Notes: generated from the letters alone by a model not told the origin. Numbered from the stretch's first letter, positions 1-54,383 are shown. The stretch: 64,000 nucleotides of DNA from Bacteroidales bacterium (GCA_021740905.1 JAIOYV010000003.1:1737-65736), one strand, 5' to 3'. A program made the numbers and translations.

Positions 1-145
1 AAACCGGGTCGCCCAAACGGACAGGCATCCTGATGATAGAAGATTTTTTCAGGGTCGAAGCACCTCCGTCTTCCATCACATTCACAAACAAAAGGCGCAC
101 GGCATTGGACCCGATATCGATTGAGGCAAATTTCAATAATTTCAT
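1..145 (-). CDS. Ppx/GppA-family phosphatase, N-terminal fragment (gene runs off the window edge)
   Basis: Not in the ORF track because it is open at the edge. Minus-strand ATG at 145..143 translates MKLLKFASIDIGSNAVRLLFVNVMEDGGASTLKKSSIIRMPVRLGD. The DIGSNAVRL phosphate-binding motif is typical of Ppx/GppA N-termini. Confidence 0.55.
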   Translation of the reverse strand, partial: MKLLKFASIDIGSNAVRLLFVNVMEDGGASTLKKSSIIRMPVRLGDPV

Positions 146-202
146 AGTTTCTGGTTTTAATTTCTGATGAAAGATCTGTCATCTATTCCGGGATTAAAAA
201 TA

Positions 203-235
203 GTGAAAAAAAGAAAGGCTGCATATAGCAGCCTT
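203..235 (-). terminator. Rho-independent terminator after the AOR gene
   Basis: 8-bp stem aaggctgc/gcagcctt with loop atata (215..235). On the minus strand it is followed by a T-run (complement of 203..214). Confidence 0.6.
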
Positions 236-263
236 CTTTTCAATTATTTCGAACCCTCGATTC

Positions 264-2414
264 TTACATAAAAGGTTTCACCGTTTCGATCAATTCGGGC
301 AAATCCATACCAATGTTTTTTAGGTGGTCGATGGTTGGCACACCATTACTGTTCCATCCCCGGCGTTTGTACACGGCATCCAGCAATTTTTCGTACTGGC
401 TTTCGCGGTGCTTGCGCAGGGCAGCTTTTTTCTCGTCGGTCGATTTTCCTGCTGGGTCGATGCCAAGGATTTCTTTCAATTGCTTGTCGTAACGTTCGGC
501 GCGGCTTTCGTATTCTTCGTTGGTAACAGGCCCTGCGGCACGGTAAGGTTGGGCGTCGTACTGGCGGGTTCCGTATCCACGGCGAAGGTTGAAAATACGC
601 TGGAAGTTATACACCCTTTCCGACATACGGATTAGTTCTTCCTTGCTGAAATCGTTTCCGGTCACGGCTTTGTAAATAGTCACATAATTATCGACATGCT
701 CGGGCACTTTGGCCGGTTCGGAGGTTTCGGCATTGTTTACCGGCTCCACATCGTTCCAGGGCAATTTGCACAAACCTACCAGACCAAACCAGGTACGGAA
801 CATGGGGAAATAATGTAAGGCCTCAGCTTTTGCCTCGAAAGTTGGGATTTGGTTGTTCACCATGTCCATAAAGATCAACCAGGCTTCGTCGTGCTGAGGG
901 CCTTTGTTGGTCATGGCAAAACCGCCTTGCTGTGCCAAGGACTCTTTCGAAACATATTCAGAATATTCAAGGTTCTTGTTAACCATTCCTATGTCGTCGA
1001 GGAAAGCTTTGTCGGCTCCATGCTCTTCAACCAAAATTTTCTTTAATCCGGCAATGCCAAGTCCTACCTGCTTTCCGAATTTAGCTCCGGCAGCGAGTTG
1101 GTGCAATAGTTCGATAGCAGCTTCCTTGTTTCCGAAATTCAGTTCAAGACCACCCGACATTTCTTTGGTGATGATCCCGGCTTCGTAACACTCCATTACA
1201 AAGGCAAGCAAAGTACCCCAGGTAATGGTGCAAATTCCGTAGGTGTCGCAATAGAAATTGGCTTCAATGATATAGTCGGGGTCGAATATTCCGCAGTTTG
1301 ATCCCAGGCCACCGGCGTTTTCATACTCTGGCCCATCCACAATTACTTCGGCACCTTTGTAAGGCCCGGTTTGTACAATAAATGGGTTCACTGCCTTGGC
1401 GCACGACATGTTGCAGCCAATCCAACAACCATCGGGTGTGCCTTGCACAAAGCGACTTTTCCAAACCTCCGAGTCGATATTTTTAATATCCTTATGACTC
1501 CCATACTTATAATTGTTTGTAGGAAGAAGGTCGTAGTCGTTCATTATTTCCATCAGGTGGGCAGTCCCTTTGGTGCGCATTTCGCATTGCGAATCGTCCA
1601 GGTCGCGCATTTCTTTGTTGAAACGCTTTCCGCGTTCCATAATGGCAGGCATATCGACAACATTGTTTGCTGTTCCCTTAATGCCAGGAACTTTAATTAC
1701 GATGGCCTTGATTTTTTTATCGCGGAAAACACTTCCAATCCCACCGCGCCCGGCTTGTTTTAGGCGCACTCTTTCCTTTTTTTTGTCGTAGAAACTTACA
1801 TTCAACATTCCGATAAGGGAATTGTCGGCTGCTTCACCGGCAGATACCACCGAGATATTCATTTTTTCCTTGTCGTCGTTGGCATACATTTCAGTAAGGG
1901 TCTCGGCCAGTGCATGACTGTCTATTGGCTCAAGCGGAGCTTCGAAAATTTCAACTTTATGGTTTATCCCATCAATGTAAATAATGACATCATTTTCTGC
2001 TTTCCCTTGTAATTCGATGGCATCGAAACCATTGAATTTAAGGAAGGGGCCAAAGAATCCGCCTACGTTACTGTCCATAATAAAATCGGTGGGCGAAATG
2101 GTCACTACCAACGATTTTCCTGTTCCCGAATATTGGGTGATCCCACCGATGGGCCCAGATGAAAGGATGATCTCGTTTTCCGGGTCGTTCCATTTTGTGT
2201 CGGGCTTAGTGGCGTCCCACAACAGGCGCAACCCATAGCCTTTTCCTCCAATGAATTTCTCTTTCATCTCGGCAGGGACAGTCTTCTCTTTAATCTCTTT
2301 GCTGCCCACATTCACATAAAGGATTTTGTCGGTATATCCTTTATCGAGAGGGGTCCATTCGTATTTCCATTCAGTAATAAGCTTGTGTGCTTTGGTCATT
2401 TCATCAATCTGCAT
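264..2414 (-). CDS. Aldehyde:ferredoxin oxidoreductase family (tungsto/molybdopterin, 4Fe-4S), long YdhV-like form
   Basis: 716-aa ORF. The N-terminal domain (GGKGYGLRLLWD, SPTDFIMDSNVGG) and the large C-terminal domain are typical of the AOR family. A terminator lies downstream. Confidence 0.85.
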   Translation of the reverse strand: MQIDEMTKAHKLITEWKYEWTPLDKGYTDKILYVNVGSKEIKEKTVPAEMKEKFIGGKGYGLRLLWDATKPDTKWNDPENEIILSSGPIGGITQYSGTGKSLVVTISPTDFIMDSNVGGFFGPFLKFNGFDAIELQGKAENDVIIYIDGINHKVEIFEAPLEPIDSHALAETLTEMYANDDKEKMNISVVSAGEAADNSLIGMLNVSFYDKKKERVRLKQAGRGGIGSVFRDKKIKAIVIKVPGIKGTANNVVDMPAIMERGKRFNKEMRDLDDSQCEMRTKGTAHLMEIMNDYDLLPTNNYKYGSHKDIKNIDSEVWKSRFVQGTPDGCWIGCNMSCAKAVNPFIVQTGPYKGAEVIVDGPEYENAGGLGSNCGIFDPDYIIEANFYCDTYGICTITWGTLLAFVMECYEAGIITKEMSGGLELNFGNKEAAIELLHQLAAGAKFGKQVGLGIAGLKKILVEEHGADKAFLDDIGMVNKNLEYSEYVSKESLAQQGGFAMTNKGPQHDEAWLIFMDMVNNQIPTFEAKAEALHYFPMFRTWFGLVGLCKLPWNDVEPVNNAETSEPAKVPEHVDNYVTIYKAVTGNDFSKEELIRMSERVYNFQRIFNLRRGYGTRQYDAQPYRAAGPVTNEEYESRAERYDKQLKEILGIDPAGKSTDEKKAALRKHRESQYEKLLDAVYKRRGWNSNGVPTIDHLKNIGMDLPELIETVKPFM

Positions 2415-2734
2415 ATTCTATATCTTTAAGTTTCCTTCATAAGTGAGGCAAAATTAGAACATTAATAGTTTTCGTCTATGGATTTTCTGAATGATATTTG
2501 TCAATATGAAATTCTTTGCAACTCGATTAAGAAACTGGTTTCTAAAGAGATAAAATCAAACCTTTATTTGCTCTGCAATTTAGAATAAATCTGTTTAATA
2601 AAAAGATGAAATACATGAGTGAAATTGACTTTTTTTGATGAAAATTGAATTGTTTATTTGAAAGATTAAAACCTATTGGTGCAATTACTTGTTAAACATT
2701 TCAAAAGCATTATTAATCAAAATATAGAAGTACG

Positions 2735-3316
2735 ATGACTTTCGATGAAATAAGGGCGAAGCTTAAAACCAAAACAGTCGGGATAGCCGGTGCTGGCGGT
2801 TTGGGGTCGAATTGTGCCGTGGCCTTGGCACGGTCGGGGGTAGGAAAACTAATAGTGGCCGATTTCGATGTTATCGACTTGAGTAATCTAAACAGGCAAT
2901 ATTATTTTTATCATCAACTTGGGCGGAAAAAAGTTCTGGCTCTACAGGAGAATGTGAAGATGGTAAACCCTGAAGTTGTATTTGTGCCTTTGTCACTCAA
3001 GCTCGACTCGGTTTCTATTAAAAAGGTTTTTGCCAATTGTGATATCATTGTGGAGGCGTTCGACCGAAACGACATGAAACAGATGATTATCGAAACCGTG
3101 CAGGAATTTTTCCCCGACAAGCCTTTGGTGATAGGTTCGGGCATGGCCGGTTTTGGCGGCAACAACCTAATCCGCACCGAACAACATGGAATCCTTTATA
3201 TATGTGGTGATCAGCAAAGCGAGGTGTCGGATGTTCTGCCCCCGCTTGCCCCACGTGTCGGTGTGGTTTCGATGATGCAGGCCAACCAGGTGTTGGAAAT
3301 TCTATTAAAATCTTAA
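2735..3316 (+). CDS. thiF: ThiF-family (short form) sulfur-carrier adenylyltransferase
   Basis: 193 aa. Rossmann GxGxxG motif (GIAGAGGLGSNCAVALARSGVGKL) followed by DFDVIDLSNLNRQ, the ThiF/MoeB/E1 signature. Confidence 0.75.
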   Translation: MTFDEIRAKLKTKTVGIAGAGGLGSNCAVALARSGVGKLIVADFDVIDLSNLNRQYYFYHQLGRKKVLALQENVKMVNPEVVFVPLSLKLDSVSIKKVFANCDIIVEAFDRNDMKQMIIETVQEFFPDKPLVIGSGMAGFGGNNLIRTEQHGILYICGDQQSEVSDVLPPLAPRVGVVSMMQANQVLEILLKS

Positions 3317-50148: not shown

Positions 50149-50222
50149 TTCTGTTCGTGCGGTTGGACAGACACACTCTTTGACAAGCTTTGGTTTAAGC
50201 GTTGGCTGGTAGGGCTTGGCAA
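50149..50222. repeat. Left copy of the imperfect direct repeat flanking the XRE/PHP-ATPase/AlbA_2 cassette
   Basis: It shares ttctgtt, gacaagct, ttggttt, agcgttggct and ggcaa, in the same order with small gaps, with 54315..54383. Confidence 0.5.
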
Positions 50223-50257: not shown

Positions 50258-51430
50258 TTATTTCTTTTCTGGTCTTGGAATTATGACTTTGAATTGTTCG
50301 CCTTCAACATCGTTGATAAGTTCGATATTTGGTTGAGCTTCCAATGCTCGGTTAATACCAGAACCAAACCCACGATAAATCATCAACTTTGAACAATAGG
50401 ACACCAAAAGGTTGTTACGTACAACTGCATGACCCATTTTTATATTTTCTATGGTAAGGTTATTTGGTAGAGAACCAGGACTCACAATTTCAATTCGATT
50501 ATCAAATATCATTATCCTTATGGGTGAATTTTTGGAATAGTCTCTATGTACCAAAGCATTCTGCACAAATTCTTCTAATGCGATTTGTGAAATTTCCAAT
50601 TTGCCCACAGAATTAAAATTCTGACCTGCCTGAATATGAAGTAAATTTGAGGTGAAAAACCTCATAGTTTCCTCAAAGATTTCAGGAATGCATCCCTCTA
50701 TATCTTGACTGCTTCTGTATTCCGTTCCTCCAATACTGTTACCAAAAAATGAAATTGCCTTTACGCAAAACGCAGGTCTATACTTCTGTGGATTATTTGC
50801 AAAAAATAAAAGACCACCTAAAGTAAGACGACCCTCTTTAATAATATTCAAATTATGTAGAAGATTTTCGGTAATATCAATACTTTCATCTGATTCTCTT
50901 TTTTGAACGGCTTTTACATATTTTTCGACTTTGGAAACTTCAACATCATTAACAGTTGTTTGTGGAATAATCATTTCATCCAAATACAAGATTCCACTTT
51001 GTTGAAACAATCGTATCTGCTCATTATTGTCTGTTAGCCGTCTCTTATCAGAACCTTGCTTTATCCAGATGGCACCATTCTTATCTTTGTAAGGCTTAGC
51101 GGTCCCTTCAGAAATTTCAACTATCAGTACTTTTTTATCATCTTCGGAAGAAGAAACACCAACAACTTCTGTATAAATAAAAATCTGTGGTTTTACCATA
51201 TCATTGGCAATGTTTGCTAACAATTGATTGTAGTCTTGAATCTGTTTTATACTAAGTCCTGTAATCTTTCCGGTTTTATCTTCAACACCAAAAAATAGTT
51301 TACCTCCTCTGGAATTAGAAAAGGCTATCATTTCGGCAGCAATAGAATCGTTGCTGTCAATCTCTCTTTTAAACTGTACCTTACTTGTTTCGCCAGTGCT
51401 AATTATATCCAGTAATTCTAATGCGTTCAT
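50258..51430 (-). CDS. AlbA_2 (Schlafen-like, divergent-AAA) + HATPase_c_4 domain protein
   Basis: 390 aa. N-terminus: GETSKVQFKREI…IAFSNSRGGKLFFGVEDKTGKITGL. C-terminus: VQNALVHRDYS…RIEIVSPGSLP…YRGFGSGINR. Its start overlaps the upstream stop (ATGA). Confidence 0.85.
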   Translation of the reverse strand: MNALELLDIISTGETSKVQFKREIDSNDSIAAEMIAFSNSRGGKLFFGVEDKTGKITGLSIKQIQDYNQLLANIANDMVKPQIFIYTEVVGVSSSEDDKKVLIVEISEGTAKPYKDKNGAIWIKQGSDKRRLTDNNEQIRLFQQSGILYLDEMIIPQTTVNDVEVSKVEKYVKAVQKRESDESIDITENLLHNLNIIKEGRLTLGGLLFFANNPQKYRPAFCVKAISFFGNSIGGTEYRSSQDIEGCIPEIFEETMRFFTSNLLHIQAGQNFNSVGKLEISQIALEEFVQNALVHRDYSKNSPIRIMIFDNRIEIVSPGSLPNNLTIENIKMGHAVVRNNLLVSYCSKLMIYRGFGSGINRALEAQPNIELINDVEGEQFKVIIPRPEKK

Positions 51431-54042
51431 ATTGATTTTATTTTTTCAATGTTCCAAATGCTGTAAATATTTTTCCTGCGATTAAATGCCTCGTCTCCAC
51501 CTTCCATTATGTCAACAATAAACCGTTGTGTCTGGTGATTATCAATAGTGCCTGAATGTACGGTGATTTTCTTGTCATCAAAGCTGCACGAAACAACTTT
51601 TTCACTATCACCAAGCACAGGGATATTGGCATTATGGGTAGCAAAGACAAATTGCATAGTACCCTTTATTTCCTTTAGCTCTTTTATTACTTCATCATAA
51701 ATGGTTTGATTATCTAAATCATCTTCGGGTTGGTCAATAATCAATACATCATTTTCCCTTTGAGCCAATAAGAAAAGAATTAATGCTGATGCTCGTTGCC
51801 CTAGAGAATGTTTGTCTAATGATTTTCCATTGTATTGAATGACTATTTTATTTTCTACTTTAAAAGTGAGCAAGTCTTCCAGACTTTCAGAAAACCTTCG
51901 TTTAAAATCAACTACATGATTTTCATTCAATATGTCATCCAATTTACTGCTGTCTCTGTATATCTGAATGAAGTCTTTGTAGTTAGCTTCAATCTCCTGA
52001 TAAGCTGTTTCCCGAATGTTTGTACCCCTAAAAATTTGCTTCATCTTGTCAGTAAGTTTATCCCTCCTGCCTTTGAATTCAACATCAATTGAAATTTTAC
52101 TTTCTGCTTCATTAATCCTTTTTACCTCTTTATTGAGAACATTATATTCTTCAAGCCAAAGGTTATCAAGTTCAGTAAGACGTTCTAGTAAATTGGTTTG
52201 CAAATCGCTTCTTCTCTTTTCAGATTTTTCTATTTCCTTTAATTTTAAAAGGGCAGTTTCAATTAGCCTGTTAAGATTCAGAAAATTATCGGGATTAATG
52301 GTGTCTGTGTTTATTTCCCGTTTAATCTTTGCAAAATCTTCCTTTAAACCTTCTTTTTTGGTATTTATTTTTGCAATTACCTCTTTTAATTTCTGTTGAC
52401 TGAGTATAGAATTCTTTTGGATCGTTTTTAGTTTTTCAAACTCAATTTTTAGTTCTTGAATGATTGTTTTTGCTTCTTCAAATAATTCTTTATTAATTTC
52501 TGAACCAGTAATTTCTTGTTGAAAAAAATAATCATGATTAGAAATTACAGATGCCAATTCGTTTAAATAACCTCTGACAGTTGATTCATTTTGAGCCAGT
52601 TTTGAAATATCAGAATCAAAAAGTGTTTGTTGTTTCAATTTATCTTCAATACCTTTTTCTTTAAAGTAATTAAGTTGATGCTTCGAGTTTTGTATTTGAG
52701 CATCTGTTTCTTTTTTTAAGTCCTTTAAATTTTGGAGTTTTTTTAGTTCTGATATTATGTTTTCAACCTCTCTTTTCTTTTGCTCAATTTTAACTTGAAC
52801 TGCTTTTAATCTTGTTCCAATTAATCGTTTAATCAAATCACCTTCAAAATCTTTTCCCTTATTCGACAGGTCTTTTTGTCCAAAGTAAATTGGGGAATTA
52901 AAGCCTGTAGCATCAATAGAAATTCCAGGTTGAAGTAGGTTGTTTTTATAAATATCTTCTTTTTGACCATACAGTTTTTCTATCCTATATTCTTCATTTT
53001 GCTTGTTGACTATGGTAACTATAGCTTTTCCTCCGCTACCCATTGAACGGGTTACTAATGAATTTTTATAATCCGGGTCAGCGGCATTAATAGGCAGCGA
53101 GATTCCAAGAACATAGCGTAAAACTTCCAATAACGATGATTTTCCACTTCCCCTGATTCCGATTAAATTGTTGAGTTCAGGTGAAAAATCAATTCTTGTT
53201 CCTTCTAATAAACCACCTTCAAATGCAATTGATTTGATGTAAGCATTTTTTATGTCAGGTTTGTCTTTCGGTGAAACTCTGTATTCACTATCCGTCAATG
53301 CAAAAGTTAGTGCTTCAAAATTAAAATCCCCTATTTTTATATAAGTAACCTTGCCTTTTCCTATAGCATCAATGCCTCCATGAGCATTATCTGAACCTTC
53401 AATACAAGCGATTTTACTCTTTCTATTCAGCCACAAACAAAGTTTGTTGTAATTTTCAAGATTTGCACTTTTCTGAACAGCCAAGACCTTATTGAATGAT
53501 TCTTGCTTCACAAAAACCTCTTGAGTTCTACCTCTCAACTCCGTAAATAATCCATTGCTGTCGTCAATGTGAGCCAAGACAATAAAGTAATCGTATCCGA
53601 TTTTGTCTAATGCTTCTACAGTTTCTTTTAGATTGAAGTTTGAATTTGGGTAATTAGGCTTGTCATAGCTAGAAATGCCATAAAAAGCATTCTCCAAAAA
53701 TTTATTGATATTGTCTGTTTCACCCTGATACCATTTATCATCGAAAACAACTAAAATGTGAATTCCTTCTTTTAATGAGAATTCAACTCCTGCAAATAAT
53801 CCAATACCTTCTTTTATTGCTTTCTTTCTTAGGGCAACAAATTCATTTTTATCAAATTTATTATGATTGGTAATGACTCCAGCATTGATATTTTGTTCTT
53901 TAAGTTTTTCGATATAAAGTCGGCAGAAATCATTCTCGTTACCTGTATACGAAAATTCTTTATCTGCCTTTGTATGCAAATGGAAATCAGCCCGAAGCCA
54001 AGTCGCACCATTTTTAAAAATATTTATAGTTTCGCTTTCCAT
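51427..54042 (-). CDS. PHP-domain phosphoesterase fused to an SMC/Rad50-like ABC ATPase with a long coiled coil (Ppl-like)
   Basis: 871 aa. PHP motifs ADFHLHT, ITNHN, VLAHIDD and GSDNAHG. Walker A GIRGSGKSS, then ~300 aa of coiled coil. Signature-like SLGQRAS, Walker B VLIIDQPEDDLD, and H-loop FATHN. Confidence 0.85.
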   Translation of the reverse strand: MESETINIFKNGATWLRADFHLHTKADKEFSYTGNENDFCRLYIEKLKEQNINAGVITNHNKFDKNEFVALRKKAIKEGIGLFAGVEFSLKEGIHILVVFDDKWYQGETDNINKFLENAFYGISSYDKPNYPNSNFNLKETVEALDKIGYDYFIVLAHIDDSNGLFTELRGRTQEVFVKQESFNKVLAVQKSANLENYNKLCLWLNRKSKIACIEGSDNAHGGIDAIGKGKVTYIKIGDFNFEALTFALTDSEYRVSPKDKPDIKNAYIKSIAFEGGLLEGTRIDFSPELNNLIGIRGSGKSSLLEVLRYVLGISLPINAADPDYKNSLVTRSMGSGGKAIVTIVNKQNEEYRIEKLYGQKEDIYKNNLLQPGISIDATGFNSPIYFGQKDLSNKGKDFEGDLIKRLIGTRLKAVQVKIEQKKREVENIISELKKLQNLKDLKKETDAQIQNSKHQLNYFKEKGIEDKLKQQTLFDSDISKLAQNESTVRGYLNELASVISNHDYFFQQEITGSEINKELFEEAKTIIQELKIEFEKLKTIQKNSILSQQKLKEVIAKINTKKEGLKEDFAKIKREINTDTINPDNFLNLNRLIETALLKLKEIEKSEKRRSDLQTNLLERLTELDNLWLEEYNVLNKEVKRINEAESKISIDVEFKGRRDKLTDKMKQIFRGTNIRETAYQEIEANYKDFIQIYRDSSKLDDILNENHVVDFKRRFSESLEDLLTFKVENKIVIQYNGKSLDKHSLGQRASALILFLLAQRENDVLIIDQPEDDLDNQTIYDEVIKELKEIKGTMQFVFATHNANIPVLGDSEKVVSCSFDDKKITVHSGTIDNHQTQRFIVDIMEGGDEAFNRRKNIYSIWNIEKIKSI

Positions 54043-54239
54043 TATTTCGCTTTTCTATCAGTTAATAATTCTTTGACTTCAACATCAAGGATTTCAGCAA
54101 TCTTGTACAAATCTTCTAAACTTGGTTGCCGTCTGTTTTGGGCATACGAATTTACCATATTGTAACTCTTGCCTAATTGCTCAGCCAACCATTTTTGTTT
54201 AATTCCCTTCTGTTCTAAAACGTCTTTTATCCGGTTCAT
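54042..54239 (-). CDS. XRE-family helix-turn-helix transcriptional regulator
   Basis: 65 aa. IKQKWLAEQLGKSYNMVNSYAQNRRQPSLEDLYKIAEIL is a Cro/C1-type HTH. Its stop overlaps the next start (TAATG). Confidence 0.8.
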   Translation of the reverse strand: MNRIKDVLEQKGIKQKWLAEQLGKSYNMVNSYAQNRRQPSLEDLYKIAEILDVEVKELLTDRKAK

Positions 54240-54262
54240 TCTTGAACTTTTTTATATTTTAC

Positions 54263-54270
54263 AAAAGTAA
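54263..54270 (-). promoter_or_regulatory. TAnnTTTG -7 box for the cassette operon
   Basis: The minus strand reads tacttttg, 24-31 nt upstream of the XRE ATG at 54239. Confidence 0.4.
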
Positions 54271-54314
54271 GAATAAATATTTTATATCTCACATAATGAG
54301 TATTTAAATCATCA

Positions 54315-54383
54315 TTCTGTTTGGGTGCAGTAGGAAAGGACAAGCTCTTTTGGTTTTTCAGCGTTGGCTTTGCGTGTCGGCAA
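54315..54383. repeat. Right copy of the imperfect direct repeat flanking the cassette
   Basis: See 50149..50222. The same ordered blocks occur here: ttctgtt … gacaagct … ttggttt … agcgttggct … ggcaa. Confidence 0.5.

Follow-up and report, generated by a model that had tools for sequence, protein, structure and literature searches.

The stretch of DNA analysed here (the window, 64,000 nucleotides from a Bacteroidales bacterium, GCA_021740905.1 JAIOYV010000003.1:1737-65736) carries on its minus strand, at 50258-54239, a horizontally acquired three-gene operon that encodes, in this order, a small helix-turn-helix (HTH) protein, a TrlF-family protein that joins a PHP phosphoesterase domain to a split ABC ATPase head, and a Schlafen-like partner. 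We read the operon as a mobile module directed against phages or other mobile DNA, in which a PHP exonuclease would be controlled by a nucleotide- and DNA-binding SMC-like head, together with a non-catalytic or attenuated Schlafen-like subunit and an HTH controller; we give this reading a probability of about 0.6. The PHP-ABC fusion itself is not novel, as it is catalogued as the TrlF family, and Ppl, a characterized relative, has the same layout. What may matter is the context: in contrast to Ppl, TrlF is nearly always accompanied by a Schlafen-like protein in which the catalytic motif is consistently changed, and the pair is repeatedly inserted inside restriction-modification (R-M) operons. 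TrlF is a very common branch of the Ppl-like PHP-ABC proteins, and the pair would inform both the reuse of the Schlafen fold as a non-catalytic subunit and the way in which "second-layer" modules cooperate with restriction systems.

Architecture of TrlF and its relation to Ppl

TrlF matches the NCBIfam model NF045780 ("TrlF family AAA-like ATPase") with 538 bits against a cut-off of 350, residues 11-860 of the protein covering positions 1-943 of the 944 in the model. The sister NCBIfam models stay below their cut-offs (Spaf_1101, 198 versus 475 bits), and the PADLOC model of Ppl also matches. An identical protein is found in a Bacteroidales metagenome-assembled genome (P0001), a 93% identical one (P0037) is already labelled TrlF by NCBI, and TrlF is the name given by the annotation pipeline PGAP to homologues from Escherichia coli, Yersinia and Listeria, the neighbour being called "RNA-binding domain-containing protein". 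The family comprises 7041 clusters at 50% identity (E<=0.001), was found in 580 of 600 screened stretches of reference genomes, and has matches in 1187 plasmid records. When complete E. coli genomes were searched with a 3.8-kb Enterobacter query spanning TrlF plus partner, 161 of 5426 showed some match and 38 carried most of it. With a 538-bit family score and thousands of homologues, the PHP-ABC match is far beyond chance. Compared with the family, the window protein shows no difference in length, domain order or motifs, other than a lineage-specific S-D-N-A-H in place of the usual S-D-P-K; the window copy sits in a minimal, three-gene cassette. Within the open reading frame, Rfam gives a weak match to a domain of plastid group II introns (51623-51793, minus strand; 29.6 bits, gathering score 140, E=0.015), which was taken as chance.

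The PHP domain is not listed at E<=0.01 when the whole protein is compared with Pfam. Scanned alone, the N-terminal 263 residues match PF02811 at E=6.5e-7, their 30.3 bits exceeding the gathering score (26.4), and the NCBIfam scan adds a weak match to CehA/McbA metallohydrolases. The HxH motif reads HLH and occupies residues 21-23. For conservation analysis, 82 diverse full-length relatives (24-67% identical) were aligned; D19, H21, H23, E87, H95, H158 and D218 are kept in at least 81 of these sequences, and H60 in 72. At residues 218-223 (window 53374-53391) the window lineage reads S-D-N-A-H-G-G, a two-residue insertion supplying a His as in the S-D-A-H-H of Ppl.

The ABC head is split into two halves, and its motifs can be read directly from the sequence: Walker A, GIRGSGKS (residues 295-302, with K301); a signature-like motif, HSLGQRA (745-751); Walker B, VLIIDQPE (766-773); and the H-loop, ATH (801-803, with H803). 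Residues G295, G298 and K301, G388-Q389, S746, G748 and Q749, D770, D774-D777 and H803 are invariant or nearly so in the 82 relatives, and Pfam AAA_21 matches residues 723-807. The coiled-coil region between the two halves measures 240-259 residues in 81 of the 82 members, and in none of the 82 does it contain a CxxC. The only cysteines of the window protein are residues 40, 202, 213 and 819, and none of them lies between the head halves.

An AlphaFold2 (AF2) model of the TrlF monomer, built with the alignment of the 82 relatives, was obtained with a mean predicted local distance difference test score (pLDDT) of 92.1 and a predicted template modelling score (pTM) of 0.82. The model consists of an alpha/beta PHP domain extending to residue ~255, a first head half (266-398), two long helices (399-508 and 518-645) joined by a nine-residue turn and interrupted by short breaks in both arms, as in SMC coiled coils, and a helical/beta insert (650-737) that precedes the half with the signature and Walker B motifs. 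A Foldseek search of the PDB returned as top matches an Smc head with coiled coil (5xei), MukB, JetC, condensin and cohesin heads, Rad50, RecF, RecN and LmuB of Lamassu; the PHP-type enzyme 7rty matches the N-terminal 240 residues only, and no PHP-ABC fusion was found by Foldseek in the PDB. At the sequence level, the TrlF family profile retrieves from the PDB only generic heads, those of Smc6, Smc3, Rad50 and AriA, and no Ppl structure, and the single TrlF sequence has no PDB match at E<=0.01.

These results agree in most points with the earlier note, which had described from the sequence a single 871-residue polypeptide at 51427-54042, leaving its minus strand unmentioned, with an N-terminal PHP domain and a split ABC head. 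The PHP domain is confirmed by the Pfam score and by the conserved ligands, and the head by motif reading, by the model and by the Foldseek matches; of the outcomes that the note had named as refuting, a missing coiled coil, a missing composite head and an incomplete set of PHP ligands were not encountered. The absence of a zinc hook also holds, with no Cys between residues 214 and 818. The coiled-coil segment stands as well, with a length of ~247 residues (399-645) and not the ~300 given before.

The split head with an intervening antiparallel helical arm is common to Rad50/SbcC, JetC (Wadjet), LmuB (Lamassu), RecN and RecF, which provide the best structural and profile matches, and the model predicts for TrlF, too, a split ABC head joined by an antiparallel coiled coil. 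TrlF differs from Rad50/SbcC-Mre11/SbcD and from SMC-like defence ATPases in that its presumed nuclease belongs to the same polypeptide and adopts a PHP fold instead of a calcineurin-like, TOPRIM or Cap4 one. Its arm is short (~110-128 residues per strand) and lacks both zinc hook and hinge, and its catalytic Glu is replaced by Gln; the SMC model TIGR02168 gives 23.8 bits against a cut-off of 567, and in the AF2 model the nine-residue turn takes the position of the hinge. The neighbours of TrlF are HTH and Schlafen-like genes, with no SbcD/Mre11 (calcineurin-like) or kleisin gene nearby, in contrast to Rad50/SbcC. The SMC/Rad50-like head and coiled coil, and the occurrence of PHP domains as proofreading exonucleases in PolX and PolC described in the cited literature, would be compatible with a housekeeping enzyme that processes double-strand breaks or hairpins as a one-chain analogue of SbcCD/Mre11-Rad50, PHP replacing the Mre11-type nuclease. 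We consider such a role extremely improbable: TrlF reaches 18 bits with the Rad50 NCBIfam model, whose cut-off is 700, the zinc hook and the catalytic Glu are missing, and the distribution is patchy and marked by horizontal transfer, with a low-GC island, carriage on plasmids and transposons, and nesting in R-M loci.

In ABC ATPases the position that follows the Walker B Asp is held by the catalytic Glu, and E-to-Q mutants of ABC and SMC proteins keep ATP bound and heads engaged while hydrolysis is poor. TrlF has Gln at this position (D770-Q771-P772-E773; window 51724-51735), invariantly in 82 of 82 family members and also in Ppl. Judged by its motif, TrlF is a natural "EQ" ABC ATPase, and the D-Q Walker B, together with the known behaviour of E-to-Q mutants, suggests that nucleotide sensing fits better than an ATP-driven power stroke. 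The proposal of the earlier note that the nuclease is gated by ATP-driven head engagement is thus unsupported as stated, given the invariant Gln and the reported inhibitory effect of nucleoside triphosphates (NTPs) in Ppl.

Ppl was reportedly first described by Gao et al. in 2020. The protein has the same succession of PHP domain, Walker A half, long helical insert and signature/Walker B/H-loop half, in 895 versus 871 residues. An annotated Ppl from a Klebsiella plasmid (L101) is collinear with window TrlF by BLASTP, with 23% identity over residues 12-354 and 31% over residues 721-856; the PHP motifs DFHxHT, xxHN, GVEx, xxHIL, LAHID and GSDxxH are common to both proteins, and the Walker B/D-loop sequence DQPEDDLD is identical. 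Ppl has been described as acting against phages with one gene, whose product combines ATPase and PHP domains (PMC11482910). According to a review that cites Xu et al. 2026 Mol Cell (PMC12904381), it is a single-stranded DNA 3'-5' exonuclease acting through its PHP domain, which is activated by the loss of inhibitory NTPs from both the PHP and the NTPase domains and by the appearance of 3'-OH ends. NTP binding is reported to keep the nuclease inactive until the pool is depleted by phage infection; the same mechanism paper is cited in PMC13434339. No Schlafen-like gene neighbours Ppl at its locus, whereas TrlF mostly occurs with its partner and in many cases lies within an R-M operon, and the window TrlF overlaps its conserved partner by 4 bp and is not a single-gene system.

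By analogy, TrlF would act as a Ppl-like single-chain nuclease-sensor. Its PHP domain would be the metal-dependent phosphodiesterase and would most likely degrade DNA ends as a 3'-5' exonuclease; the role of PHP as effector nuclease, proposed in the earlier note, agrees with the activity reported for Ppl, and the interpretation of the note as a whole is partly supported. The SMC-like head with its arm of ~16 nm is expected to dimerize and to bind nucleotide and DNA, the nucleotide probably serving as a regulatory ligand and not being burnt as fuel because the catalytic Glu of Walker B is naturally Gln. The Schlafen-like partner would be a nucleic-acid-binding sensor or regulator, not a second nuclease, and the HTH protein would control transcription. 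Architecture, motif conservation, family membership, gene linkage, horizontal transfer and nesting in R-M operons are direct results of the analysis; the defence role, the exonuclease activity and its substrate, the sign of the nucleotide regulation and the role of the partner are inferred from them and from Ppl.

Several observations weigh against this reading. The similarity to Ppl is remote, the anti-phage Ppl model NF042955 giving 178 bits against a cut-off of 1000, and Ppl works alone, so that its mechanism may not transfer to TrlF. In most TrlF proteins, which mostly read S-D-P-K, the PHP D-x-H motif lacks its final His (73 of the 82 relatives are gapped at this position), and the metal site may differ within the family. 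PHP enzymes also act on RNA or phosphomonoesters, so that the substrate of TrlF need not be DNA. The hairpin geometry of the arm is deduced from a monomer model by way of its secondary structure and confidence, not from coordinates, and the Gln in the partner motif is no proof of inactivity. Family scans of the neighbouring genes revealed no R-M partner or other defence gene near the window cassette, and a literature search for TrlF returned no paper and no experiment on it, only unrelated spectroscopy and acronym matches.

Table 1. Features of the operon and its surroundings; positions are those of the window.
Feature	Position	Strand	Residues and motifs	Basis
Cro/C1-type HTH protein, first gene of the cassette	54042..54239	minus	65 aa	Pfam HTH_3, E=2.7e-12
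TrlF-family PHP-ABC ATPase	51427..54042	minus	871 aa, ATG start	One intact 871-codon open reading frame
PHP phosphoesterase domain	53278..54003	minus	~aa 14-255	PF02811, conservation in homologues, motif-by-motif match to Ppl
Candidate PHP metal ligands of TrlF		minus	D19/H21/H23, D27, H60, E87, H95, H158, D218, H221	Conservation in 82 homologues
ABC head, N-terminal half	52849..53247	minus	~aa 266-398; Walker A G295-S302, Q-loop G388-Q389	Pfam SMC_N and AAA_23
Predicted helical hairpin/coiled-coil arm	52108..52848	minus	aa 399-645; turn at aa 509-517, no Cys or CxxC	DSSP of the AF2 model
ABC head, C-terminal half	51427..52107	minus	aa 646-871; S746/G748/Q749, D770, Q771-P772-E773, D-loop 774-777, H803	
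Schlafen-like partner	50258..51430	minus	390 aa; Schlafen/AlbA_2, HATPase_c_4 (GHKL-like), C-terminal DNA-binding part	Pfam
Upstream control region	54262..54320	minus		Palindrome and candidate promoter
Short direct repeat bracketing the cassette	downstream copy 50182..50207, upstream copy 54339-54369	minus		Local alignment

The Schlafen-like partner

The partner is recognized by Pfam through SLFN_AlbA_2 (PF04326, E=3e-23) and HATPase_c_4 (E=1.7e-14), and its ATG overlaps the TrlF stop codon by 4 bp. TrlF does not stand alone: translational coupling links it to this conserved partner, and the HTH gene precedes it. The linkage was followed across many phyla in 80 loci of reference genomes, whose TrlF proteins are 37-73% identical to the window one; 76 of the loci are informative. 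A full-length partner homologue lies directly downstream of TrlF in 62-63 of these 76, 47 of them with the same 4-bp overlap; four further loci have a partial or contig-truncated adjacent partner, and the partner is lacking in nine, mostly from Firmicutes.

The catalytic motif of Schlafen RNases is E-x4-(E/D)-x-K, and mutation of its second acid or of the neighbouring residue abolishes activity in the Schlafens studied (10.1101/2025.07.24.666596). The partner has the AlbA_2/Schlafen fold but departs from this motif: its sequence is E14-TSKV-Q19-F-K21, and all 45 of the diverse partners compared share Q19, E14, K21 and D51 being kept in 40-45 of them. HMMER aligns E14 and Q19 with E206 and E211 of SLFN14, and E211A of SLFN14 and E209A of SLFN11 are inactive mutants in PDB entries. 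An AlbA_2 protein that is unlinked to TrlF (L082) keeps ESKNVEFK. Foldseek matches of the partner model, which was built from a shallow alignment with a mean pLDDT of only 65, include 3lmm, SLFN14, SLFN11, SLFN13, SLFN5 and SAMD9; only the matches of the N-terminal domain were used. From the invariant Gln we infer that the partner may not be a second nuclease but a subunit that binds nucleic acids as a sensor or regulator. The same three-part architecture is found in the pSlfn HisKinase-HTH/COG2865-type AlbA_2 proteins, from which every TrlF-linked partner examined differs by reading E-x4-Q-x-K. Linkage to R-M and BREX loci has been described for prokaryotic Schlafens (PMC12839542).

The partner gene has a mosaic character. 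In comparison with L001, L002, L005, L007 and L011, cassettes whose TrlF proteins are 92-95% identical to the window one, the first 20 and the last 16 residues of the partner are identical or nearly so, and the middle is only 27-57% identical. The window allele has matches of 92-93% (P0271, P0274) that also occur in five-gene cassettes. The pattern points to swapping of partner alleles against a constant TrlF.

The conserved site E14, K21 and D51 in a Schlafen fold could also be taken as the mark of an effector. In such a PARIS-like arrangement TrlF would be the sensor and the partner a tRNA or RNA nuclease that causes abortive infection, PHP processing RNA ends or a nucleotide signal. ABC ATPases serve as sensors in PARIS and Gabija, some TrlF homologues are annotated as TrpH-like phosphoesterases (P0086), and bacterial Schlafens, including Slfn-HisKinase-HTH proteins, have been reported as anti-phage tRNase effectors (10.1101/2025.07.24.666596; PMC12839542). 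We hold this arrangement to be unlikely, however, since the second catalytic acid, at or beside which mutation is lethal to the activity of the Schlafens studied, is Gln in all 45 partners, since TrlF occurs without a partner at nine of the 76 loci and on plasmids, and since Ppl defends alone with the same PHP-ABC layout.

OLD, GajA of Gabija and AriA of PARIS share with TrlF the logic of an ABC ATPase sensor combined with a nuclease, and TrlF shows weak matches to AAA_21, AAA_15 and AriA. It differs from them by having PHP in the place of TOPRIM and a much longer coiled-coil insert; Pfam and PADLOC scans found no TOPRIM match in TrlF or its neighbours, which sets it apart from the OLD/Gabija/PARIS type. 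Sensing of NTP levels has been reported for Gabija and Ppl. The PADLOC matches of TrlF to mad3, LmuB and AriA were dismissed as generic ABC-head similarity, an unrelated ABC-transporter ATPase of the window matching mad3 more strongly.

Cassette forms, nesting in restriction-modification loci and mobility

The cassette occurs in two forms. The three-gene form, HTH-TrlF-partner, is present in the window and, intact, in unrelated genomes (L001, L005/L006 and L097/L098). In the five-gene form, an N6_N4 methylase gene is found between the HTH and TrlF genes and a ResIII/DEAD/RE_endonuc gene follows the partner, which gives a type III R-M-like operon with methylase (Mod) and restriction (Res) genes; these cassettes carry TrlF proteins 83-95% identical to that of the window. 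Alignment of the window DNA with a five-gene locus (L011) revealed 90% identity over 54400-54042 and 92% over 54047-51368, the two segments flanking the methylase gene on both sides. Mod is absent precisely at the junction of the HTH stop with the TrlF start (54042-54047, corresponding to 4027 and 5997 of L011), where ~6 bp align to both sides, and the Res gene that follows the partner in L011 is also absent from the window. As a separate observation, in L011/L012 (positions 1-3299) the five-gene cassette adjoins a type IIG/Eco57I-like methylase-S fusion and an OLD-like ABC-TOPRIM gene, that is, a defence island.

Other settings were found in addition. In E. coli JJ2434 the pair interrupts a type I system on a Tn7-like element, in the gene order hsdR-trlF-slfn-hsdS-hsdM; on a Yersinia plasmid it stands alone; and some records of E. 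coli F-type plasmids have TrlF with no neighbouring partner gene, in gene tables that are incomplete. The JJ2434 and Yersinia plasmid proteins are 39% identical homologues. The upstream neighbours include N6_N4_Mtase at 15 of 71 loci, as well as HsdR, HsdS and BrxL, and the downstream neighbours include ResIII at 10 of 60 loci, as well as HsdR, HsdS and PglZ. A type III-like Mod together with Res is present at 10 of the 80 loci.

The transfer of the cassette is apparent from its distribution and composition. TrlF proteins 82-95% identical to the window one are labelled Bacteroidales, Paceibacterota, Ignavibacteria, Verrucomicrobia and Chitinophagales, five phyla by their labels. The GC content of the cassette is 0.29-0.34, compared with 0.41-0.49 in the housekeeping flanks. 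The genes that flank it in the window encode IleS, acetyl-CoA synthetase (acs), a FISUMP/PKD protein and a MacB-like exporter.

The position of the pair between Mod and Res, or between hsdR and hsdS, and the exact absence of Mod from the window would also be explained if the pair were an accessory or guard of R-M systems, which processes the DNA products of type I or type III cleavage or fires when phage anti-restriction proteins block these enzymes. The window copy would then have been orphaned by the loss of Mod and Res. PrrC, which resides within the prr hsd locus, provides an analogy, and PARIS provides another. On the other side, 70 of the 80 loci have no type III-like Mod or Res beside the pair, many copies stand alone or are located on plasmids, and the three-gene form recurs intact in unrelated genomes, which argues for a stable configuration and not for debris. 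A guard function appears unlikely to us.

Mobility, compactness, translational coupling and a small HTH gene in first place would likewise suit a selfish, toxin-antitoxin-like addiction module, with a nuclease that kills cassette-free cells and the HTH protein or the partner as antidote, and on plasmids the cassette adjoins toxin-antitoxin genes. No antitoxin-like family match reaches its cut-off, though, defence ATPase-nucleases typically have this size and architecture, and protection against phages is reported for the related Ppl (PMC11482910); we regard addiction as very improbable.

The reading as a mobile anti-phage or anti-mobile-DNA module with a PHP exonuclease can be taken one step further. 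We tentatively suggest, as a possibility with odds clearly below even, that TrlF and its partner form a distinct and widespread two-component immune module, in which a catalytically disabled Schlafen domain (E-x4-Q-x-K) senses nucleic acid and licenses a PHP exonuclease that is kept in check by a naturally hydrolysis-impaired, SMC-like D-Q ATPase, and which plugs into type I, type III and BREX operons to add a second defence layer but also works alone, the window being an example.

HTH gene, control region and flanking repeats

The HTH gene is joined to TrlF by its stop codon, TAA, which shares one base with the TrlF ATG. The encoded protein is 92-98% identical to its counterparts at the same position in L001, L005 and L011, has weak matches to R-M control proteins in PADLOC, and is a probable transcriptional controller. 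Upstream of the gene lies an imperfect palindrome (54291-54320, 84% complementary, inverted repeat I10) that forms a putative HTH operator. It is accompanied by TACTTTTG at 54269-54262, 23 nt before the HTH ATG, a candidate promoter that fits the -7 pattern of Bacteroidota, TAnnTTTG. The region with the palindrome and TACTTTTG is conserved in L001 and L011, and these elements are likely the operator and promoter of an autoregulated operon. Scans for sigma-70 promoters and terminators gave nothing above background in a type of search that is unsuited to Bacteroidota promoters.

The three-gene cassette is bracketed by a short direct repeat that reads AGCCAACGCT..AAACCAA..AGCTTGTC. The local alignment of its two copies scores 31, compared with 16.1 +/- 2.4 and a maximum of 29 in 500 shuffles. 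The conserved flanking element folds no better as RNA than shuffled sequences (z=-1.4), and no other copies of its core were found within the window. Related elements of ~75 nt flank the five-gene cassette in L011 (3320-3391 and 12472-12548), and the bracketing repeat could be the remnant of a recombination or insertion site.

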